A program made the position numbers and the translations under genes. The notes under the pieces are model-generated. The model had not been told where the DNA came from, ran no database searches, and saw nothing but the letters and a program-made list of their open reading frames with translations. Shown one piece after another: positions 7,956 to 62,557 of a stretch of DNA of 64,000 bases (the first letter of the stretch is position 1; every line of letters begins with the position of its first letter). The DNA comes from Prochloron sp. (GTDB taxonomy: Bacteria; Cyanobacteriota; Cyanobacteriia; Cyanobacteriales; Prochloraceae): the NCBI GenBank assembly GCA_965198675.1, contig OZ240666.1:4644776-4708775 (forward strand), in the 5' to 3' direction.

Positions 7956-8072
7956 AATATTTGAATGATATGCTTTCGGAAGATTGCTATAATTAGTAAT
8001 TAGTACTGTTAACTGGTAACTGTTATTGCGAAGCTTTGCGTAAGCGTCCCGCCCTTGGCGTCTTGGTAACTG

Positions 8073-8717
8073 TTAACTGCTATAGGTGGTACTTGTTGAG
8101 TTCTCGCCCTTCAAGGCATAAACTAAAATTCTCAGAAGCAGATCAAGATCCTCAGGAACGCGAAAACTCTCTAATCCTTGACTGATATGTTTTGAGTGAC
8201 GATTAAGTTGGGAAAATTGCCATAGGGTACCAGTTGTGACGGCACCTAACAAATTCGAGTTATCATCATTCGGATCATCTAACCAGCGATCCAGAGTAAT
8301 TAATTCCACGGCAAGTTGAGTCATACCATTGACTAAGTCTTCCTTTTTGGCTTCAATCACTAGTAATTGTTGATTGGATCGGAGAAGGTAATCAAGGGTA
8401 CCTTGAAGTTGTTCTGAAACTTTTAAAGGATATTCAATGCGCAACTGAGCTTGGGTATAATGTACTAATTCTGTGACAACCCTAGAAATTAAAATTTCAC
8501 GGCGTGCCATTTCTGTACTAAGGTTTACGAAAGGTAAGATTTCACTAATACGAGAGCGCAACTCTTCGATCCGATCCAGTGGCTGTTGGGATTGGGGAAG
8601 GTTTAACCATTTTCGCGCGAAGGAATAACCAAAATCAGCAACCAGATCGTCAATCTCAATATTCAGTTCAAAGAATTTGCTAAAGGTATAAGATTGAGAG
8701 AAGTCAACAAAAGTCAT
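8073..8717 (-). CDS. hypothetical protein, possible PD-(D/E)xK nuclease fold
   Basis: 214-aa ORF; D...LLVIEAKKED resembles a PD-ExK core. This is a weak, motif-level call. Confidence 0.35.
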   Translation of the reverse strand: MTFVDFSQSYTFSKFFELNIEIDDLVADFGYSFARKWLNLPQSQQPLDRIEELRSRISEILPFVNLSTEMARREILISRVVTELVHYTQAQLRIEYPLKVSEQLQGTLDYLLRSNQQLLVIEAKKEDLVNGMTQLAVELITLDRWLDDPNDDNSNLLGAVTTGTLWQFSQLNRHSKHISQGLESFRVPEDLDLLLRILVYALKGENSTSTTYSS

Positions 8718-11210: not shown

Positions 11211-11564
11211 ATGCGACAAGTCAATTTTACCATTATCTTTGCTTTTTGTTTGGCTCTGGCCTTATTCAGCATCGAAAATACTCAGTCTGCTCCCATTAAA
11301 ATCATTCCCGGAGTCCAAGTTCAAGCCCCCCTCTCCATTGAACTAATTGTCACCATGGGTGTTGGAGCAATTCTCGCATGGCTGTTTAGCGTCTGGACTG
11401 GACTACAGCTACAGGTAGGAGCTTTCCGGAGCAAACGGGAAATGCGCTCGAAAGAAGAACAAATTGAAGTTTTAGAGCAAGAGGTGGAACAATGGAAAGC
11501 AGAGGTAGAGAAGCAAAAACAATTACTTCCCGGATCGAACGCCGAAGTAGAAGTAATTAGCTAG
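11211..11564 (+). CDS. small membrane protein with C-terminal coiled coil (LapA/DUF1049-like)
   Basis: 117 aa with two predicted TM helices followed by a charged helical tail. Confidence 0.45.
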   Translation: MRQVNFTIIFAFCLALALFSIENTQSAPIKIIPGVQVQAPLSIELIVTMGVGAILAWLFSVWTGLQLQVGAFRSKREMRSKEEQIEVLEQEVEQWKAEVEKQKQLLPGSNAEVEVIS

Positions 11565-11819
11565 TAACCGATCCCCCCTCTAAAGAAGGTTGCTCCTCCT
11601 AGACTGTCCGCCCTTCGGGCGGACTGGGAGGCCGATAGGTTACCAGCCCACGAATCTAGTATTCGTAGCCGTTATTTGAGTCATCTCACCCTAGGGTGCT
11701 TTCCAGCTCTAGGCTCTGAGGTCAAAGGTTAAACAGTTTTAGCGGGATTAAGACAGTGCTTTTGGCGCGACAAGCTCAGATAACCGGGAGAGGAAAACAT
11801 TACCCGTTTTGGAGGACGA
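11564..11819 (+). ncRNA. putative omega-RNA of the decayed IscB element
   Basis: Lies immediately upstream of the iscB remnant. It shares sequence islands with the omega-RNA-like region upstream of the intact iscB: CCCC(C/G)CTCT(A/G)AAGA, CCCACGAAT and GTTAAACAG(C/T)TTTA. Confidence 0.45.
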
Positions 11820-12475
11820 ATGTCTAACTCTGTTTTAGTAATCGACACCAACAAACAGCCATGCAACCCGGTTAATCCGGGGATGGCCAGACGTTTGTTG
11901 AAGGAAGGGAAAGTTGCCGTATTTAGGCGCTATCCCTTCACCATTATTTTGAAAGAAGAGCGCAACAAAGAGCCCACCCCTTGCCAAGTCAAGATTGACC
12001 CCGGCTCCAAAACAACCGGTATCGTGCCCCTCGGTTTCTCAACCGGACTCGGCCCAAGGGGTGGTTGCCGCCCAGCCTTGTGCGCGAGTATCTGCTTGAA
12101 AAGTGGCATCGCACCTGTGCCTACTGTGGTGCTCAAAACACCCCGTTGGAAGTGGAGCACATTGTGCCGAAATCTACGGGGGGCAGCAATCGGGTGAGCA
12201 ACCTTGCCATAGCCTGTGTGCCGTGTAATCAGGCCAAGGGCAATCAAGCCATTGAAGACTTTCTCTCGGGCAAGCCGGATCTGCTCAAGCGGATTAAGGC
12301 CCAGACCAAGGCTCCCCTGAAGGATGCGGCGGCGGTCAACTCGACCCGGTGGGCATTGTTTGAGCAGTTGAAGGCAACGGGGTTGCCGGTGACGGTGGGC
12401 ACCATCCAGGGCATCAGCCACAAATATTGTTCTTTCGTTCATAAAAAGGATGGATATTCCTATGCATTCAGTTAG
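11820..12475 (+). pseudogene. iscB: internally deleted, frameshifted IscB
   Basis: It retains the PLMP-like N-terminus (VLVIDTNKQPCNPVNPGMARRLLKEGKVAVFRRYPFTI), RuvC-I (KIDPGSKTTG), FLNRTRPKGWLPPSL in a second frame, the HNH domain (CAYCG...EVEHIVPKS...NLAIACVPCNQAKG) and the DGYSY tail. It lacks RuvC-II/III. Confidence 0.8.
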
Positions 12476-12553
12476 ACGGCAAATAAATTTGCCCTCCTCG
12501 CGTTTCCTCCCCGCTCTAAAGAGACGGGGTTTCGACGCTACCGGATGCTCATC

Positions 12554-13714
12554 ATGAAAGCCATGATTCTGGCGGCAGGGAAGGGGACTCGCGTGCGTCC
12601 TATTACTCATACAATACCTAAACCCCTAATTCCTATCCTGGAAAAGCCAGTGATGGAGTTTTTATTAGAACTGTTACGAGAACATGGATTCAATCAGATT
12701 ATGGTGAATGTTAGTCACCTAGCAGAGGAGATCGAAAGCTATTTCCGCGACGGTCAACGCTTTGGGGTTCAAATCGGCTATTCTTTTGAAGGCAGAATTG
12801 AAGAAGGGAAGCTCATAGGAGAAGCGTTAGGTTCTGCTGGTGGACTTAAACTTATTCAGGATTTTAATCCTTTCTTTGATGATACCTTTGTGGTCCTCTG
12901 CGGCGATGCTCTCATTGACCTAAATTTGACGGAAGTGGTGAAATGGCATAAGGAAAAAGGAGCGATCGCTACGGTGGTGACCAAGTCAGTACCTCGGGAA
13001 ACTGTTTCCAGTTACGGGGTTGTGGTCGCTGACCATGACCAGAAAATTAAAAGCTTCCAGGAAAAGCCCTCTGTAGAGAGAGCGCTCAGTACCAATATAA
13101 ATACTGGCATTTACATTTTTGAACCGGAAGTAATTGACTTCATTCCTCCTGGTGTTAAATACGATATTGGCAGCGATCTATTTCCTAAGTTAGTAGAAAA
13201 GGGTGCTCCTTTCTACGCTACCTGTATGGACTTTGAATGGGTAGATATCGGCAAAGTACCGGACTACTGGCACGCAATTAGAAGCGTTTTATTGGGAGAA
13301 ATAAAAAATGTGAAAATTCCTGGCAGAGAAGTAGCACCTGGTATCTATACTGGGCTGAATGTAGCTGTAAATTGGGATAAGGTGGATATAACAGGCCCAG
13401 TTTATATCGGCAGCATGACCAAAATTGAGGATGGGGCGAAGATTATCGGTCCAGCGGCTATCGGTCCCAATTGTTGCCTTTGTAGGGACACCACGGTAGA
13501 TAATAGTGTCATATTTGAATACTCTCGCTTGGCACCTAGAATCCAATTAGTGGATAAGTTGGTCTTTGGACCCTATTGCGTTGATAAAACAGGGACGGCC
13601 ATCGACGTTAGGGACGCAGAACTGGATTGGCTGATTACCGATACTCGACAAAGTCCTCCTTCCTTAGAACCCAGGGAAAAGCAGGCTATAGATGAATTGC
13701 TCAATGGATATTGA
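12554..13714 (+). CDS. sugar-phosphate nucleotidyltransferase
   Basis: MKAMILAAGKGTRVRPITHTIPKPLIPI is a nucleotidyltransferase signature, and a hexapeptide-repeat-like C-terminal half follows. Confidence 0.8.
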   Translation: MKAMILAAGKGTRVRPITHTIPKPLIPILEKPVMEFLLELLREHGFNQIMVNVSHLAEEIESYFRDGQRFGVQIGYSFEGRIEEGKLIGEALGSAGGLKLIQDFNPFFDDTFVVLCGDALIDLNLTEVVKWHKEKGAIATVVTKSVPRETVSSYGVVVADHDQKIKSFQEKPSVERALSTNINTGIYIFEPEVIDFIPPGVKYDIGSDLFPKLVEKGAPFYATCMDFEWVDIGKVPDYWHAIRSVLLGEIKNVKIPGREVAPGIYTGLNVAVNWDKVDITGPVYIGSMTKIEDGAKIIGPAAIGPNCCLCRDTTVDNSVIFEYSRLAPRIQLVDKLVFGPYCVDKTGTAIDVRDAELDWLITDTRQSPPSLEPREKQAIDELLNGY

Positions 13715-18444: not shown

Positions 18445-18890
18445 ATGTATCAGCAATTTATTCATTGTGTGAAATTCTTAATTTTCTCCTTGTGTCTTGT
18501 GGGAGTTAGTTCTGCACTAATATTCACCATCGGCTTGATTCTATTCGTGATAGAATGGCCGAAGAAATAACAAGGATATAACACTCTCCGTGTCAGCTAA
18601 AGAGGCGCGTCCCAAACAAGGCTGACACTTCCCCTCCTCAAACAGTGACCAGGACGCCAAGGGCGGGACGCCAAGGGCGGTTGCTTGCGCAAAGCTTCGC
18701 AATACCAGTTACCAGTTACCAGTCCTGCTCATGCCAACCGGGGCAGTCAGGCAGTTACCAGTCCTGCTCAGGTAAACCGGGGCAGTCAGGCAGGCGTCTG
18801 GTGCGGGGTTGGACCCACCCCCCACTGCTAAAGGGTAAATTCTCTATTAACAATAATTCACATTTTAATTGTAGCACACACTACTGTATA

Positions 18891-22180: not shown

Positions 22181-22899
22181 CCCTAAATCTGTTTATCTCT
22201 AAAGTACTCATTCTAAGTTTACCACACTTCCAGCGCTTTGACAAACCTGTTTGCTTTCGGTGACACCCAGAAATTTATCTTGGTGTTGTTCAATGAGATA
22301 TGAGGTATGATGAGTAAAGAGCAAGTTATCCATTCTGAGGTTAGCCCAGGACTTATCTTCCCCATCGGCTTGATTCTATTTATTAGAAAATTTCCTAAGA
22401 GAGGAAGACGATCAAACACTCTCCGTGTCAGCTAAAGAGGCGCGTCCCAAACAAGGCTGACACTTCCCCTCCTCAAACAGTGACCAGGACGCCAAGGGCG
22501 GGACGCCAAGGGCGGTTGCTTGCGCAAAGCTTCGCAATACCAGTTACCAGTTACCAGTCCTGCTCATGCCAACCGGGGCAGTCAGGCAGTTACCAGTCCT
22601 GCTCAGGCAAACCGGGGCAGTCAGGCAGGCGTCTGGTGCGGGGTTGGACCCACCCCCCGAGCCAAGCTCCCAGGAGGGGGGTTGGGGGGTGGGTTGCTGC
22701 ATAACTGCTAAAGGGTAAATTCTCTATTAACAATAATTCACATTTTAATTGTAGCACACACTACTGTATATGCTATGATATGATAGTGGATAGTAAAATA
22801 GGAAACAATCGATACAGAAATGGCTATACCAGAAGTTGCGCCAAAGGCGAATCTCCTCCTGACTTACCCGGTAATAAAAAAGAAGAGAAGGAGAAAACT

Positions 22900-43396: not shown

Positions 43397-43513
43397 AACA
43401 ACTTACTCACCTTTCAGTTACCAGTGACCAGTAATCACGTACCATGGTAGCAGCTCAACCTTGGGTTTGAGGCCCCCACCACTTATTTGGTGGCAAGCCA
43501 CTTATTGGTGGAA

Positions 43514-43670
43514 GGTAACTGGTAACTGCCTGACTGCCCCGGTTGGCATGAGCAGGACTGGTAACTGGTAACTGGTAACTGCCTGACTGCCCCGGTTGGC
43601 ATGAGCAGGACTGGTAACTGGTAACTGGTAACTGGTAACTGGTAACTGGTAACTGGTAACTGGTAACTGT
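43514..43670. repeat. heptamer (GGTAACT/CAGTTAC) tandem arrays interleaved with a 33-bp module
   Basis: Runs of GGTAACT (up to about 8 units) alternate with two copies of GCCTGACTGCCCCGGTTGGCATGAGCAGGACTG. The same modules occur at 9480-9520, 18700-18800 and 22540-22640. Confidence 0.9.
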
Positions 43671-56384: not shown

Positions 56385-56594
56385 TCAATATCTTGCCCCA
56401 TCACGTAACTGTTGCAAGGTTTCTAAACTGCTGGTATTAGCAGGAGTTTGAGTTGCTCGGAGTTGAACTAGGCTAGTTAGGGGTTGTTTTTTGGGAGTAG
56501 CGAGGGTGTTTTGGCTAGTTTCAGGATCTAAGGGGCAGAAAGATTGACTCAAGGACTGCAAAACGATGTTTTCAGGTGTCAGAGTTATTGCCAT
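56385..56594 (-). CDS. small protein P1 (deletion variant of an RHH-like family)
   Basis: MAITLTPENIVLQSLSQSFCPLDPETSQNT...; paralogs lie at 57973..58179 and 57707..57940. Confidence 0.45.
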   Translation of the reverse strand: MAITLTPENIVLQSLSQSFCPLDPETSQNTLATPKKQPLTSLVQLRATQTPANTSSLETLQQLRDGARY

Positions 56595-56680
56595 TATCTG
56601 CTCCTGGGGGTTTGCTCGACGTATTTCTAGTTTCCCTTGGCTTTGACCGAGTTGAGGTGGGCTTGAACGGTGAGGTTGTT

Positions 56681-57082
56681 CTAGACTCTTGTTCGATTAT
56701 AGCGGTAAGGCTGATGGAGCCAATCTAAATACAACTGGGACTTACGAGCCAACTGAATTGCTAAATCCATTGCTTGTTTACGATTTTTTTCTGGATCGGG
56801 GACATTAATGATGGTAACGTGAAATTTACTATCTTGAATCCCATTTAATCCTAAGTCTCTCAGATCGGCAACTGAAAAGCTGATGACTCCATAGCATTTT
56901 TTTAGTCTGCTATAGGTTGCTTCTGGGGTTAAATTTGCTGAAAGGCCACGTTCTTGAGGACGGAGCAAAAATGCTTCTGGATCAACTTCTTTAGTATCTG
57001 GATCGATCCATCCTTTTTTCCGAATTGCTCGATATAAAATCCTATCATCTGATAATTCACTCACTGTTTTATATCTATCCAA
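56681..57082 (-). CDS. hypothetical protein (downstream gene of a two-gene cassette)
   Basis: A 133-aa ORF directly abutting 57083..57577. I recognise no family. Confidence 0.5.
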   Translation of the reverse strand: MDRYKTVSELSDDRILYRAIRKKGWIDPDTKEVDPEAFLLRPQERGLSANLTPEATYSRLKKCYGVISFSVADLRDLGLNGIQDSKFHVTIINVPDPEKNRKQAMDLAIQLARKSQLYLDWLHQPYRYNRTRV

Positions 57083-57577
57083 TTAAAATGAAGGAAGCTT
57101 ATTCTCATCAGTCCCTAACCATTGCAAAAGTTGAGCTAGTTTGGTTACAGAAGGTTGTTCAATTAGACAGCTTTCTAAATTTAGTCTAAAGTATACTGAT
57201 AAATGTACATTATCGGCAGTATGAGGAAAATGTAAACGAATTTCTTTATCTTGTACTTTACATTTCCAAACCAGGTTGATACCACCCTGACTATCTACAG
57301 AGCCATAGCCAAGTGGAAAAGATTCTCCAACTAAGTGATAGAGTTTTATAAGCAGGTTTATTGAACTAGAGAAAGCGTTTTCTGTTGGACAAAATATTTC
57401 ATCACCTTCTTCTTCCTCTAAGTCTTTATCTATTTCCCTCAGTTCCCACAATCGCTCAAAAGTAGTTTTGAAGTGCTGATTATTAAATTCCTTGGAAACC
57501 ATCTCATGGATTTCTTCAAGTCTGAGTACTGGCTCAATCGTTTTAAGCATTTTGATAACTCCTAATTTAAATTCCAA
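57083..57577 (-). CDS. hypothetical acidic protein (upstream gene of a two-gene cassette)
   Basis: A 164-aa ORF with a GGAG-containing leader. I recognise no family. Confidence 0.5.
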   Translation of the reverse strand: MEFKLGVIKMLKTIEPVLRLEEIHEMVSKEFNNQHFKTTFERLWELREIDKDLEEEEGDEIFCPTENAFSSSINLLIKLYHLVGESFPLGYGSVDSQGGINLVWKCKVQDKEIRLHFPHTADNVHLSVYFRLNLESCLIEQPSVTKLAQLLQWLGTDENKLPSF

Positions 57578-57642
57578 TTGAGAATGATAACATTGCTTAA
57601 TATAACTGTCAAGCGATCGCCTAGGCAGTTACTATATCTAGA

Positions 57643-57797
57643 CAGGGTAAGCGCAAGAATCAATAAGGGGCATCTATTCTCAATTATCATGATAATGATT
57701 GCAAGATTATTGCGAATATGGCACACTATTGAGAATTAACATGGCTCTATACCACATTTTGGCACAATTTTTCTTGCGCTTGCCCTGGGTGTTTTGG
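57643..57797. mobile_element. MITE with CAGGG(T/C)AAGCGCAAGAA terminal inverted repeats, copy 2
   Basis: 155 bp with the same termini and internal similarity to 46619..46763. It truncates small gene P3 after ...ETSQNT. Confidence 0.7.
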
Positions 57798-57940
57798 CTG
57801 GTTTCAGGATCTAAGGGGCGGAAAAATTGACTCAAGGATTGCAAAACAATGCTTTCAGGGGAAACTTGCTGTTGCTTCGCTTGAACCATCATCTGCTGTT
57901 CTAATTCATCGGTAAGTTCAATTGTCAGAGTTCTTGCCAT
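57707..57940 (-). pseudogene. small RHH-like protein P3, 3' end replaced by the MITE
   Basis: MARTLTIELTDELEQQMMVQAKQQQVSPESIVLQSLSQFFRPLDPETSQNT, after which the reading frame enters the MITE. Confidence 0.55.
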
Positions 57941-57972
57941 GATTTGCTCCTGGGGGTTTGCTTGACGTATTT

Positions 57973-58179
57973 CTATCTTGCCTCGTTACGTAACTGTTGC
58001 AAGGTTTCTAAACTGCTGGTTTTAGCACGAGGTTGAGTGGCTCGGAGTTGGGTATGGCTAGTTAGGGGTTGTTTTTTGGAAGTGGCGAGGGTGTTTTGGT
58101 TGGTTTCAGGGTCTAAGGGGCAGAAAGATTGACTCAAGGACTGCAAAACGATGTTTTCAGGTGTCAGAGTTATTGCCAT
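57973..58179 (-). CDS. small protein P2
   Basis: Near-identical to P1 (MAITLTPENIVLQSLSQSFCPLDPETNQNT...), including about 80 bp of upstream sequence. Confidence 0.45.
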   Translation of the reverse strand: MAITLTPENIVLQSLSQSFCPLDPETNQNTLATSKKQPLTSHTQLRATQPRAKTSSLETLQQLRNEAR

Positions 58180-58320
58180 TATCTGCTCCTGGGGGTTTGC
58201 TCGACGTATTTCTAGTTTCCCTTGGCTTTGGCCGAGTTGCCAGACAGGGAGTTTACCTGTTATTATAGGTAATTGGGAATGTCAAAAACCCTAGATTTAT
58301 AAATAAGCTGACCTAGGTGA

Positions 58321-59628: not shown

Positions 59629-59888
59629 GAGGGAGGATAGGGGAATTTTTCACGATACTTCTCGGGAGAGCGGAGGAAGCTCGGCTCGGCGGATAAATCC
59701 GCCGTAAAACAGTGACCAGGACGCCAAAGGCGGTTGCTTCGCAAAGCTTCGCAATACCAGTGACCAGTTACCAGGCGTATGGTGCGGGCTTTGGTCCCGC
59801 ACCAACGCCTTCCACCAATAAGTGGTTTGCCACCACTTATTTGGTGGGGGCCTCAAACCCAAGGTTGAGCTGCTACCATGGTACGTGA

Positions 59889-61187
59889 TTACTGGTCACT
59901 GGTAACTGAAAGGTGAAATTGGTAGGAGTAGCCATCTTTTCTGTGGATGGTTTCGCAATATTTATAGCTAATTCCTGAAACCCTCCCTTTCGCAGTAGTA
60001 ATATCAAAAGAACCAGTTTTTCGAGTTGCCACTCTGCCTGTATAAGTACCGATTTTTTTACCTTTAGTTACAACAGCTCTTACAATGTCTCCTGTCTGAA
60101 AACCTTTGTGAATTTTCTTTCTGGAGTTATGGCGAATCGGAAACCCATATTTATTTGTCCCGCATATCTGACGCTTCCCATGGCCTTTAGCTGCAATTAA
60201 CAAAGGTTGATAATCTTCAATGTGCAACACATCAACCTTGCCAACATTTGCAGCATCCAGCCAATGAGTTTTTGGTATGTTTTGACGGCAACGGTTATAT
60301 TTAGTTAAACCGCCTGAACCCACTTCAACCGGGAGTCCAATTAATTTCAGTTCGTCGTGCAACTTCCACCGAGTTGCATTGACTGCCGCCGCATCTGCCA
60401 ATGGTTTTTTAGCTTGAGACCAAATACGCTTGATAATATTGGATTTACTTGACAGAAACTCTTCTATTTCTTGATTACCTTTAGCTTGATTGCAATTATG
60501 GCAAGCAATCGCTAGATTCGAGACTCTATCGGAACCTCCTTTTGATTTAGGCTTAATATGCTCAACCTCTAGTCTAGTATTTTTTACTCCGCAATAGGCA
60601 CAAGTCCTGTCCCATTTTTCTAGAAGATATTCCCGCAGTTCATAACCATATAAAGTCCCCTGTTGGTATTCAATACCAGAGACTTCAGGGTTTAGCATTT
60701 TTTGAGTATCAAACCTAACTAGCTCTTGAGAAATACCAGTTACTGGGCAAAATTTAATTAGTTTGTTGACCCAAGTTAAAATATTATGAACCCGCGACAT
60801 TAGACTAGGTGGCAACCAACCTTTGGGTCTCCTCCTATTAAGAAATCTGGGCTGACGATACCGAGTTTTACGATTACGACGAGAGCGTCTAAGCTGTCTC
60901 CTAGAGGTTAAAGCTTCTCGGATTTGAAAACCTCTATGGGTTAGTTCAGCCCCCCAAATAACCCTATCGCTTTGGACAATCGCAAATCCTGTTGTCTTAG
61001 CACCTGGGTCTATTTTTAGTTGATGGTCATGAGTTACGCAATTTTCCACCTCTAAATCTTCCATTACAATGGTGAATGGATACCGTCTTAGAACTTTTGC
61101 CCTTCCTGACTTCAGCAATTTTCTTGCTTTAGCAGGATGACATGGGTCTAGTGGTTTTCGGTTTTTATCCAAGACAAATACACGCAT
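59889..61187 (-). CDS. iscB: IscB RNA-guided nuclease (apparently intact)
   Basis: 432 aa: PLMP-type N-terminus (MRVFVLDKNRKPLDPCHPAKARKLLKSGRAKVLRRYPFTI), RuvC-I KIDPGAKTTG, Arg-rich bridge RRQLRRSRRNRKTRYRQPRF, RuvC-II SQELVRFD, HNH CAYCG...EVEHIKPKSKGGSDRVSNLAIACHNCNQAKG, RuvC-III HWLDAANVG, and a DGYSY tail. Confidence 0.85.
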   Translation of the reverse strand: MRVFVLDKNRKPLDPCHPAKARKLLKSGRAKVLRRYPFTIVMEDLEVENCVTHDHQLKIDPGAKTTGFAIVQSDRVIWGAELTHRGFQIREALTSRRQLRRSRRNRKTRYRQPRFLNRRRPKGWLPPSLMSRVHNILTWVNKLIKFCPVTGISQELVRFDTQKMLNPEVSGIEYQQGTLYGYELREYLLEKWDRTCAYCGVKNTRLEVEHIKPKSKGGSDRVSNLAIACHNCNQAKGNQEIEEFLSSKSNIIKRIWSQAKKPLADAAAVNATRWKLHDELKLIGLPVEVGSGGLTKYNRCRQNIPKTHWLDAANVGKVDVLHIEDYQPLLIAAKGHGKRQICGTNKYGFPIRHNSRKKIHKGFQTGDIVRAVVTKGKKIGTYTGRVATRKTGSFDITTAKGRVSGISYKYCETIHRKDGYSYQFHLSVTSDQ

Positions 61188-61209
61188 AATGTGAATACTC
61201 CTATTTCTA

Positions 61210-61429
61210 GGGTTAAGTTCGCTTCGTCAATGTTTTTCAAGCTTGTTGGGCTTGCTGCACTGCCTTGCCCCTCGTAAAGCTGTTTAACAACAAGCGACAG
61301 GGCCATAAACTAGCGACGCATTCGTGGGTGTCATAACTTGAAAAACGTAGCCCACTAATGGGCTTAGACTGGTCAGCTATCCTATGAGAGAGGCACGAGA
61401 GCAACGCCTCTTCAGAGCGGGGTGCTGAC
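61210..61429 (-). ncRNA. putative IscB omega-RNA scaffold
   Basis: A 220-nt non-coding segment directly 5' of iscB on the same strand. It is duplicated at 61678..61895, with substitutions concentrated in a few patches. Confidence 0.6.
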
Positions 61430-61553
61430 ATCCGGGACAATTTCTGGTTCGCTTCAATCGTGCCACATGGTCGGGGTTTTCAGCATGAGTTGGAAAGGTC
61501 AAACCAACAACAGCTAAGAGGGCGAAGGTAGTAGTCAAAGCCTGGAATTTCAT
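61430..61553 (-). pseudogene. 5' fragment of a secreted pentapeptide-repeat protein gene, cut by the IscB element
   Basis: MKFQALTTTFALLAVVGLTFPTHAENPDHVARLKRTRNCPGC is a signal peptide plus the usual CPGC lead-in to pentapeptide repeats. It ends exactly at the element boundary. Confidence 0.6.
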
Positions 61554-61559
61554 GAAAAA

Positions 61560-61895
61560 TTCTCGGGAGTTTGGAAACCACCATTTTCAAATGGTGGAGT
61601 AAAAACGACGCGGCAAATTTATTTGCCGTCCCCCACCAGGGGGGGTGGAGTATAAATTCCACAAACTCCTCTTACGAGGGTAAAGTTCGCCTCGTCAATG
61701 TTTTCCAAGCTTGTTGGGCTTGCTACACTGCCTTACCCCTCGTAAAGCTGTTTAACAACAAGCAACAGAGCCACAAACTGGCGACGCATTCGTGGGTGTT
61801 ATGACTTGAAAAACGGAGACCTCAAAGGGCTTAGACTGGTCAGCTATCTAAAGGAGAGGCACGAAGCCCCGTCACAAAGCGAGCGGGGTGCTGAC
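61560..61895 (-). mobile_element. ORF-less IscB-element derivative (omega-RNA plus RBS plus right-end hairpin)
   Basis: It contains the second omega-RNA-like copy, the AGGAGT ribosome-binding site, then directly the GGCAAATAAATTTGCC hairpin and CTCCCGAGAA. The iscB ORF is completely absent. Confidence 0.6.
61678..61895 (-). ncRNA. orphan omega-RNA-like copy
   Basis: 218 nt, collinear with 61210..61429. Confidence 0.55.
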
Positions 61896-61901
61896 CTGGC
61901 A

Positions 61902-61956
61902 GGGTAAGATTCAACGCCTGGTTAGACAAAGTTAACATTGGTTGATATAGTCAAGG
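61902..61956. repeat. 55-bp direct repeat, copy a (abuts the orphan element)
   Basis: GGGTAAGATTCAACGCCTGGTTAGACAAAGTTAACATTGGTTGATATA..GTCAAGG recurs at 62650..62707. Confidence 0.85.
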
Positions 61957-62034: not shown

Positions 62035-62271
62035 ATGGCTAAAGTAGCGAAAGAAATTATCTTTTACTCAGATATTGCAGGAAACGAGCCATTTAATAAC
62101 TGGCTAAATGGTTTGCGAAATTCTCTTATAAGACGACGTATTTTCAAGGGCTTGTTTCGGATCGAGAGCGGCAATTATGGAGACAAAAGCACCCAAACCC
62201 AAGACATTAAAATTGCAAAAGCCTATTGGAAGGACTACTTAACTAATGAGAAAATACAAAACTTTACATGA
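62035..62271 (+). pseudogene. RelE/ParE-superfamily addiction-module killer with an internal deletion
   Basis: ...RRRIFKGLFRIESGNYGD joins directly to KSTQTQDIKIAKAYW. The central beta-strands expected in this family are missing. Confidence 0.5.
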
Positions 62272-62557
62272 AGCAGCCAAAGAATATTTCATGAAAAATC
62301 CTGAAGAAATTGACAATTTTATTCTCGAAATTTTTGAGGACTATGCTAAAGACGGGGATTCGGCTGCACTACTTTCTGAACTACGAGTCATTGCTAGTGT
62401 CAAAGGTATTTCTTATCTGGAAGAAGATTCCGAGATGACCCCGCAGGAATTGGAAAAAGACCTTTCTTGCCAAGAAAACCCACCCCTTGATAGTGTGAAC
62501 TCCATTATGCAGGCCATAGGTTATCAGCTTATGCCAAAACCGCTCCTAAAAACGTAA
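62246..62557 (+). CDS. HigA-like addiction-module antidote protein
   Basis: 103 aa; ...NPEEIDNFILEIFEDYAKDGDSAALLSELRVIASVKG...NPPLDSVNSIMQAIGYQL. It overlaps the killer remnant. Confidence 0.5.
   Translation: MRKYKTLHEAAKEYFMKNPEEIDNFILEIFEDYAKDGDSAALLSELRVIASVKGISYLEEDSEMTPQELEKDLSCQENPPLDSVNSIMQAIGYQLMPKPLLKT

Follow-up and report, generated by a model that had tools for sequence, protein, structure and literature searches.

The segment at 59654..61429 on the minus strand of the window (the 64,000-nt stretch of Prochloron sp. DNA analyzed as a whole) is best explained, with a probability that we put at about 85%, as a transposase-less IS200/IS605-type (ISC/IscB) element whose nuclease and guide RNA are intact and which probably cannot be excised. 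The element would be non-autonomous and consist of a HEARO omega RNA gene, iscB, and a distal end, and the features that we assigned to it and its surroundings are collected in Table 1. It is a well-known kind of selfish element, an IscB with its guide RNA, and there is nothing new in principle about it; the slightly unusual part is confined to its recent local history. IscB is the ancestor of Cas9, and the family is named automatically by NCBI's models.

Table 1 Features at and around the iscB element, with positions in the window
Feature	Position	Strand	Basis
GTGAA at the adjacent-motif position (ATGAW in others)	59649..59653	-	Copy comparison
Terminal segment of the element (...CCGCTCTCCCGAGAAGTATC)	59654..59686	-	End alignment and DNA folds of seven copies
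End hairpin B, CGGCGGAT TT ATCCGCCG	59687..59704	-	Homologous to the stop-codon hairpin of canonical copies
210-nt insertion of two small repeat modules	59705..59914	-	Absent from sister strain L033
iscB coding sequence, 432 aa	59889..61187	-	ORF list, profile matches, paralogue alignment
Omega RNA (HEARO) scaffold	61212..61429	-	Rfam RF02033, 152.7 bits, full model
Predicted guide, flanking host DNA (...GAACCAGAAATTGTCCCGGAT), directly 5' of the scaffold	61430..61450	-	Position relative to the scaffold start
Host-gene remnant: start codon, signal-peptide-like N-terminus, ...NCPGC	61430..61553	-	ORF list; L033 ORF
ORF-less mini element, 342 nt	61554..61895	-	RF02033, 151.4 bits; end alignments; absent from L033
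Predicted guide flank of the mini element (AATCTTACCCTGCCAG)	61896..61911	-	L033: same sequence, then GTGAA

The first-pass annotation had described the 432-aa ORF as carrying all the hallmarks of IscB, and profile searches bear this out. The ORF scored 480.7 bits against the guided_IscB equivalog NF040563 of NCBIfam ("RNA-guided endonuclease IscB," cut-off 175 bits) over profile positions 1 to 314 of 314, its residues 3 to 177 matched Pfam RRXRR at 1.2e-75, and the HNH insertion matched Pfam HNH (6.4e-13) and HNH_5 (1.5e-11). The family to which it belongs comprises 977 clusters (E ≤ 1e-30, clustering at 50% identity), and its closest solved relatives are TbaIscB (9k30; 1e-46) and OgeuIscB (7xht/7utn; 8e-27). 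PLDP occupies residues 12 to 15 in the PLMP/RRXRR N-terminus. In the alignment with OgeuIscB, the RuvC residues D60, E155, and H308/D311 correspond to D61, E193, and H340/D343, respectively; RRQLRRSRRNRKTRYRQPRFLNRRRPKGW aligns with the arginine-rich bridge helix region, and structure-relative alignments show that the HNH residues C196/C199, H210, N224, C229/C232, and N233 are kept. There are no frameshifts or internal stops, and the catalytic substitutions that the annotation had envisaged on proper alignment were not found against the solved IscBs. The protein is collinear with nine intact 427-aa paralogues. No alignment of the TAM-interacting C-terminal domain to solved structures was obtained, and the integrity of this domain was therefore judged solely by comparison with the paralogues, with all of which residues 316 to 425, DGYSY included, are conserved and collinear. 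An AGGAG ribosome-binding site can be read at 61198..61202 on the minus strand, 10 nt 5' of the iscB ATG. Judged by these alignments, the ORF is a full-length IscB with all RuvC and HNH catalytic residues present.

The annotation had also pointed to an omega-RNA-like region directly 5' of iscB and had suggested a covariance-model search, which gave a full-length match to RF02033 well above the gathering score of 83 bits (E = 3.6e-32; model positions 1 to 211 of 211, pseudoknot and every stem included). On the same strand, the scaffold stops at 61212 and iscB begins at 61187; the transcript probably extends to approximately 61188, right before the start codon. Compensatory changes were found in 31 of the 52 predicted pairs across 15 copies, and HEARO lay directly 5' of iscB in 14 of the 16 iscB-bearing loci scanned, with no match upstream of iscB at the other two (L015 and L029). 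By the position of the scaffold start, the roughly 20 nt of host DNA abutting the scaffold had been rightly assigned as the predicted guide. Its sole match within the window is itself, and a metagenome scan with the guide junction returned only four chance matches on unrelated contigs. In the sister strain, L033, GTGAT follows this guide sequence. The promoter scan was uninformative, finding no convincing promoter 5' of either this omega RNA or that of the mini element, and the mini element contains a terminator-like hairpin with a T-run (61611..61628) that separates the iscB-linked omega RNA from the region upstream.

If this copy acts as its family does, transcription from the host flank would yield an RNA with a 5' guide of approximately 16 to 20 nt of host sequence and a structured scaffold, IscB would bind this RNA, and RuvC and HNH would cut guide-matching DNA that has ATGAW after it, equivalent to WTCAT beside the transposon left end. 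In the family cycle, the cut would destroy the empty site that TnpA, acting in trans, leaves on excising the element, and recombination with the sister chromosome would restore the element. In this Prochloron clade, the ATGAW adjacent motif is very often the start codon of a gene, which would explain transcription of the guides from host promoters.

The element boundaries were placed using 14 Prochloron didemni P4 copies and the 96 to 99% identical sister strain. The 14 loci (84–93% identity) have a common sequence from GTCAGC... to ...C|ATGA and unrelated flanks. The annotated boundary at 61429/61430 coincides with the first base of the RF02033 match, at 61429, and with the common start of nine Prochloron copies, which all begin with GTCAGCACCCC and are preceded by unrelated DNA. 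Shared ends without inverted terminal repeats or target duplication are IS200/IS605-type features. An ATGAW/ATGAG motif adjoins the distal end in 13 of the 14 copies; in transposase orientation, the window copy has TTCAC compared with WTCAT in the other copies. Hairpin A, a subterminal structure of the left end, and its GGAAACC spacer are absent from the window copy and L033; they are kept in the copies at L007 and L008, in the mini element, and in the decayed copy at 11564..12553. The window copy, which keeps only hairpin B, is probably no longer excisable because it has GTGAA as its adjacent motif and no subterminal hairpin A; two mismatches in the first hairpin behind the right end point the same way. 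The missing hairpin A argues for a defective member of the IS200/IS605-type family and not for another family. As annotated, no tnpA lies inside the element, and tblastn with an IS608 TnpA query, a weak test, detected no TnpA in the window and the fetched loci. Elsewhere in the window, at 11564..12553, there is a decayed IscB copy with internal deletions that show 1 to 7 nt of microhomology.

Canonical copies end with ...DGYSYQFHGG and a stop codon that lies within the hairpin GGCGGATAAATCCGCC, and in the window copy 210 nt of small repeats part codon H425 from this hairpin. The insertion contains heptamer-like CAGTKAC units and 19-nt inverted termini (59755–59773 and 59886–59904), and partial copies of it occur in the window at 43409..43515, 18666..18722, 22501..22557, and 8006..8074. 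It exchanges the last two canonical residues, GG, for seven, LSVTSDQ, and leaves the protein canonical through H425. The reported overwriting of the iscB 3' end by repeats is a strain-specific insertion after codon 425. The annotation had further spoken of a displaced right-end hairpin; the displacement is correct, but the side is not. The omega RNA sits at the transposon right end (Meers et al., 10.1101/2023.03.14.532601), and by this convention the displaced hairpin belongs to the left end.

Compared with the nine intact paralogues, iscB has a dN/dS of approximately 0.09 (0.08–0.10) at dS values of 0.56 to 0.90. Against the sister strain, dN is 0.0041 and dS is 0.0035, values that reflect approximately five changes at very few sites and are compatible with relaxed selection on the window copy since the two strains split. 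A dN/dS of approximately 1 on just these changes would also be expected of a freshly dead relic that looks intact only because it is young, that no longer yields a functional RNA-protein complex, and whose gene, RNA, and ends are decaying like the copy at 11564..12553. This alternative, which we regard as unlikely but worth weighing, is favored by two substitutions derived relative to all paralogues (P258S and L261I), by two G-to-T changes, shared with L033, whose two mismatches weaken the first small omega hairpin behind the right end, by the loss of an end hairpin and the gain of the 210-nt insertion, by the lack of an obvious promoter, and by the presence of a clearly decayed copy in the same window. 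By contrast, the reading frame and the catalytic residues are undamaged, the omega RNA scores as high as those of intact Prochloron copies (143–163 bits), both derived substitutions fall in the variable linker after the HNH domain, and tails after DGYxY differ naturally among the paralogues. We prefer the reading of an element with an intact nuclease and RNA that has probably lost its mobility.

The insertion into a gene for a pentapeptide-repeat protein whose start resembles a signal peptide was corroborated by the sister strain, to which only a LapA-like protein of 117 aa and a GUN4 orthologue with 97% identity led; exact-protein look-ups with the GUN4-trypsin, PNPOx, and pseudouridine synthase proteins of the window gave no match. 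The host ORF of L033 has 139 residues, 95 more pentapeptide-repeat residues than in the window, and matches Pfam Pentapeptide at 9.5e-29. L033 carries this element too, with the distal flank unchanged, but there the junction with the gene lies 286 nt deeper. Because it retains 286 more bases of the gene beside the element, the present guide junction is secondary, and ...NCPGC, although correctly annotated as the present boundary, is not the original insertion point; by the same comparison, the host gene has been eroded further since the two strains split. Past the opposite end of the element, the remainder of the host gene was not found; the distal flank there spans 25 nt, GTGAA included, up to the stop codon of a trypsin-GUN4 gene that converges on the element. 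The two flanks therefore do not represent a target that was simply split. Searches with the 42-residue host N-terminus gave no word matches, and the 139-residue query retrieved no uninterrupted orthologue, only distant pentapeptide proteins of 86 to 244 aa with at most 65% local identity.

The mini element, which the first-pass annotation did not mention, lies 124 nt upstream of the iscB element in the same orientation. It contains a full omega scaffold (61680..61895) and a complete distal end, with hairpin B at 61611..61628 and hairpin A at 61578..61597 followed by ...CCCGAGAATTTTTC, and it abuts ATGAA, the start codon of the host gene. We considered whether it is a local duplicate of the neighboring omega RNA and rejected this because the two are only approximately 84 to 88% identical and the mini element's distal end belongs to a different subtype. 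The likeness of CGAACCAG and CTAACCAG, 5' of the two omega RNAs, was likewise rejected as a sign of a longer element, since both flanks are host DNA in the sister strain. Two full-length, co-oriented omega RNAs 124 nt apart and 5' of one intact iscB, in a copy that is seemingly immobile, might suggest that the host has recruited the locus as a two-guide module for defense or regulation. We consider this highly improbable: both guides are just adjoining host DNA, with no other match in the window, the absence of the mini element from the sister strain makes the arrangement very recent, and the IscB family has the behavior of a selfish element present in many copies.

Relative to the sister strain, 286 nt and 88 nt of host DNA have been lost, and these losses stop where the two scaffolds begin and start at GTGAW in the ancestral sequence, one base off ATGAW. 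Ordinary microhomology-mediated deletions, unrelated to the enzymes of the element, have a little under an even chance of being the explanation. The junctions show 4-nt (ATGT) and 3-nt (GGT) microhomology, the internal deletions of the decayed copy at 11564..12553 show microhomology as well, and a perfect ATGAA within the lost 286 nt went unused. However, both ends lie no more than 2 nt from an element boundary, which we estimate at approximately 1 to 2% each for a random endpoint, and GTGAW at both starts has a probability of 1.3e-5 by chance, or 7.5e-4 given GT. A different reading, which we think rather improbable, is that the losses are not accidents but guide changes driven by the element. 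The transposase might join the right end to DNA just past a nearby motif-like site; or a chance deletion might fuse the scaffold to DNA 5' of the motif and then be driven to fixation, as the new guide would let IscB cut the undeleted chromosomes of a polyploid cell and repair would copy the deletion. If so, a stranded IscB element would re-programme itself and erode host genes directionally. Still less probable, in our view, is that the differences are artefacts in which a short-read assembler collapsed tandem copies. Assemblies classically collapse at elements this long and this similar (1.8 kb, 99% identity), and the junction in the window is the product expected from a second insertion beside GTGAT, but two independent collapses inside 2.3 kb would be needed, the 4.7-Mb contig of the sister strain shows a simple single-copy layout, and the window has no other sign of misassembly.

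The pair of strains offers a rare close-up of short-term change in such an element: the guide has been replaced, an ORF-less omega RNA element has been gained, repeats have been inserted, and an end hairpin has been lost. The orthologue is compact (427–432 aa) and occurs in many near-identical copies, and its natural variation could guide engineering.

The protein has the same domain order as OgeuIscB (7utn and 7xht) and TbaIscB (9k30), from the PLMP N-terminus to the DGYxY end, and the catalytic residues match; in all of these systems, the omega RNA is 5' on the same strand with a flank-derived guide. The window IscB is shorter than OgeuIscB (432 versus 496 aa), with approximately 25 to 30% identity over the aligned parts, and in its tail seven repeat-derived residues replace the last two. 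HEARO was reportedly first seen by Weinberg et al. in 2009, in cyanobacteria. The scaffold here matches the HEARO model RF02033 over its full length and is likewise multi-copy in cyanobacteria, but differs in the first hairpin by the two G-to-T changes of the window copy and the sister strain. HEARO RNA is the omega RNA of IscB (PMC13565253; Meers et al. 2023). The adjacent motif of GstIscB has been defined experimentally as TTCAT, and tnpA lies near only approximately 1.5% of iscB genes (Meers et al., 10.1101/2023.03.14.532601). The Prochloron family motif ATGAW equals the TTCAT of GstIscB and ISGst5 from Geobacillus stearothermophilus, beside the left end, and, as in ISGst5, the element is co-oriented with the host gene upstream. 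In contrast to ISGst5, the window copy has TTCAC and is without the subterminal left-end hairpin, and no cognate TnpA was found in the window or the fetched loci. The mini element resembles PATEs, the ORF-less derivatives of IS200/IS605 elements, in that both ends are kept and the protein gene is absent. Unlike PATEs, it retains a complete omega RNA and could therefore provide IscB produced elsewhere with a second guide.

The first-pass annotation had read positions 59660-61429 as an apparently intact IscB nuclease with an upstream omega-RNA-like region, inserted into a secreted pentapeptide-repeat gene. That overall interpretation was supported, with corrections concerning the junction, the guide, a mini element, the flanks and excisability. 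Residues 3 to 177 of the ORF matched Pfam RRXRR (1.2e-75), three HNH models matched as well, and the NCBIfam equivalog "RNA-guided endonuclease IscB" scored 480.7 bits (cut-off 175) with its entire 314-position profile covered. The best matches among solved structures were IscB proteins only, namely TbaIscB (1e-46) and OgeuIscB (7xht/7utn, 8e-27). In alignments with OgeuIscB, all RuvC catalytic residues were kept (D60, E155, H308 and D311, equivalent to D61, E193, H340 and D343), as were the HNH residues (CxxC pairs C196/C199 and C229/C232, H210, N224 and N233), and the bridge helix aligned with the arginine-rich RRQLRRSRRNRKTRYRQPRFLNRRRPKGW. The dN/dS of 0.08 to 0.10 (dS 0.56–0.90) against nine intact Prochloron paralogues indicates strong purifying selection on the protein family, which held 977 clusters at E<=1e-30 among 1.84 billion representatives; the approximately 5 differences between the window iscB and that of a sister strain (dN ~ dS) are too few sites to judge present selection. 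Every sequence criterion tested places the element in the IscB/HEARO OMEGA family.

The covariance-model search proposed in the annotation returned a full-length Rfam HEARO match in the 220 nt upstream of iscB. HEARO is the RNA now recognised as IscB omega RNA (Meers et al.; review PMC13565253). In an alignment of 15 copies, 31 of the 52 pairs of the consensus fold showed compensatory double changes. Two findings had been named as contrary to the annotation's reading, substituted catalytic residues and an upstream region without an omega-RNA-like fold; neither was obtained, since the residues are unsubstituted and the region folds like an omega RNA. By homology with characterised IscB systems, transcription of the RNA would start outside the element and give it a 5′ end of flanking host sequence serving as guide (...CAGAAATTGTCCCGGAT in the window), and IscB with this RNA would cut DNA where a guide match is followed by the adjacent motif. 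A promoter scan upstream of the window omega RNA was uninformative, and a terminator-like hairpin lies upstream of it, in the mini element.

A genome scan found 14 copies at 84 to 93% identity in the Prochloron didemni P4 assembly and more distant ones in Spirulina, Nostoc, Calothrix, Moorena, Halomonas and Chloroflexi. All Prochloron copies start with GTCAGCACCCC, upstream of which the DNA is unrelated between copies; this start coincides with the proposed boundary at 61429/61430. Canonical copies encode 427 aa ending in ...DGYSYQFHGG*, carry the stop codon in the loop of the hairpin GGCGGATAAATCCGCC, and approximately 70 nt after it end in ...TTTCCCGAGAAATnnC; ATGA comes next, and the sequence beyond it is unrelated between copies. 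These shared ends define the window element.

Features of the IscB locus and its relatives (plain coordinates, window positions; L numbers, loci of relatives; L033, sister strain)
Feature	Location	Strand	Details
IscB element	61429 to 59654	minus	1776 nt; omega RNA, iscB and end only
iscB ORF	59889..61187	minus	432 aa
HEARO/omega RNA	61212..61429	minus	Rfam, 152.7 bits vs gathering score 83; model positions 1-211
ORF-less mini element	61554..61895	minus	342 nt; 124 nt upstream of IscB element
Losses of host DNA	61430 and 61896		vs L033 10906..11191 and 11316..11403
ATGAW start-codon sites	61549..61553, 12554..12558; L004 5378, L005 1859, L007 5349, L008 5350, L013 2703, L022 about 5335, L023 5449, L030 5045
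Copies with a repeat just after the iscB stop codon	L002, L005, L006, L009, L011, L012, L014

The sister strain was identified through an orthologue, 97% identical, of the neighbouring trypsin-GUN4 protein; its 4.7-Mb contig (ENA ERZ22157276) matches the window at 96 to 99% identity in the region of the locus. Phycobilisome linker and CpeS/CpeT genes mark the organism as a relative of Prochloron, not Prochloron proper. Its IscB element is that of the window (99.3% identity), and the distal flank is shared too. Window 59705..59914, 210 nt absent from the sister strain, was inserted recently and is made up of two small repeat modules, both found elsewhere in the window. The annotated overwriting of the iscB 3′ end by repeats was thus borne out; its effect on IscB is to replace the final GG by LSVTSDQ and nothing else, a change that is probably harmless because family members naturally differ in their tails after DGYxY. 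In both strains the loop of the hairpin at 59687..59704 (L033 9330..9400) reads TTT rather than TAA and no longer provides the canonical stop codon; the sister iscB therefore reads to the TGA of GTGAA just past the element end (442 aa), and the earlier stop in the window is supplied by the repeat insertion. Further copies of the modules, which resemble MITE-type repeats and have CAGTGACCAG-type termini, occur at 43409..43515, 18666..18722, 22501..22557 and 8006..8074. In many P4 copies the stop hairpin GGCGGATAAATCCGCC is itself split by another small repeat (TGGTCACTG...CGAAGTGCCG); in the window the repeats were inserted just 5′ of it. Small repeats thus seem to insert preferentially at this hairpin.

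The sister-strain host ORF matches Pfam Pentapeptide (9.5e-29) and has a signal-peptide-like start, in agreement with the annotated secreted pentapeptide-repeat host. The ORF is indeed cut after NCPGC in the window, but this is not the original insertion point: in the sister strain it runs 286 nt further to the omega scaffold junction (MMKFQALTT...NCPGC DLSGADLSRLNLSDADL...HANFVGAN|GTCAGC). The window junction is a secondary loss of these 286 nt, by which, from the aligned strains, the guide was changed. The rest of the gene is missing beyond the element in both strains, so the flanks are not two halves of one target; 25 nt of distal flank, GTGAA motif included, separate the element from the stop codon at which the converging GUN4 gene ends. 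A search with the sister-strain host protein found no intact orthologue.

A second, independent loss, of 88 nt, lies beside the mini element, and each of the two ends inside microhomology that covers an omega scaffold's first bases. Their ancestral starts are GTGAW (...CCCGGAT|GTGAT and ...CCTGCCAG|GTGAA), so each new guide matches the undeleted allele beside a motif-like pentamer; the IscB copy's own distal flank is likewise GTGAA. RTGAW would follow both junctions by chance with a probability of 1.3e-5, which rises to 7.5e-4 once the shared GT is assumed. The two losses may be ordinary microhomology deletions, a common event in a decayed copy near 11.5 kb, with the motif a coincidence. Other possible causes are a cis half-reaction of a transposase, recombination between copies after another element had inserted nearby, rare boundary-exact deletions brought to fixation because IscB cuts the undeleted chromosome copies, and assembly collapse of tandem copies. 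A simple motif-directed model is countered by a perfect ATGAA within the deleted 286 nt that went unused.

In the mini element a complete omega RNA (61680..61895, 151.4 bits) runs straight into a distal end that is also complete and has both hairpins; at this position the sister strain has native upstream region, 88 nt long. The mini element is ORF-less and PATE-like, and it could supply IscB with a second guide in trans. The 11.5-kb copy (11564..12553, plus strand) consists of a third HEARO (117 bits) and an iscB with a frameshift and several internal deletions; its sister-strain counterpart (L034 5354..8711) is longer, with an IS607-type element (serine resolvase and TnpB, ~2.1 kb) nested in it that is absent from the window. 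Divergent from the host gene are two small genes (62035..62557, plus strand), likely a toxin-antitoxin pair, the second matching the "addiction module antidote" family PF21716 (1e-7). Small repeated ORFs (56389..58239; 68–107 aa, units ~90–97% identical) form a cluster with the phycobilisome linker genes on one side and the GUN4 gene on the other; it is arranged differently in the sister strain (L033 6220..7919).

The window copy suggests a transposon that is no longer excisable. Its adjacent motif is GTGAA, two pairs are broken in the first hairpin behind the right end (GGCGTTGCT vs GGCGGGGCT), and both it and the sister copy lack the 8-bp subterminal hairpin A and GGAAACC spacer that L007, L008, the mini element and the 11.5-kb copy carry ~24 nt from their ends. 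Subterminal hairpins are what this family's transposases bind; the window copy, defective at one end, is therefore best read as stranded, with nuclease and RNA apparently intact. In characterised IscB systems the element's role would be retention and spread: a transposase excises it, the rejoined empty site combines guide match and motif, IscB cuts this site, and sister-chromosome repair restores the element. Such a cycle, like guide RNA transcription and guided cutting, is predicted for the window copy by analogy.

Beside the distal end, 13 of 14 inspected copies of the clade carry ATGAW (ATGAG once). In 10 of the 14, ATGAW is the start codon of a long same-orientation gene, compared with 15% of random ATGAW sites followed by at least 80 codons (binomial p = 4e-6). 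The elements thus separate a gene's ATG precisely from its leader, or lie at a TAATG operon junction (e.g., 11564/12554); in such positions the guide would be open to transcription from host promoters. A limited literature search found no mention of start-codon use of ATGAW by IscB elements.

The IscB element in the window is an already known kind of system, and the main interest lies rather in the strain-to-strain dynamics and the clade's start-codon habit. The noted absence of tnpA holds for the 1776-nt element and agrees with its occurrence near only ~1.5% of iscB genes (Meers et al.). The clade's ATGAW is the reverse complement of TTCAT, shown experimentally to be the motif of GstIscB and its transposase (Meers et al.).
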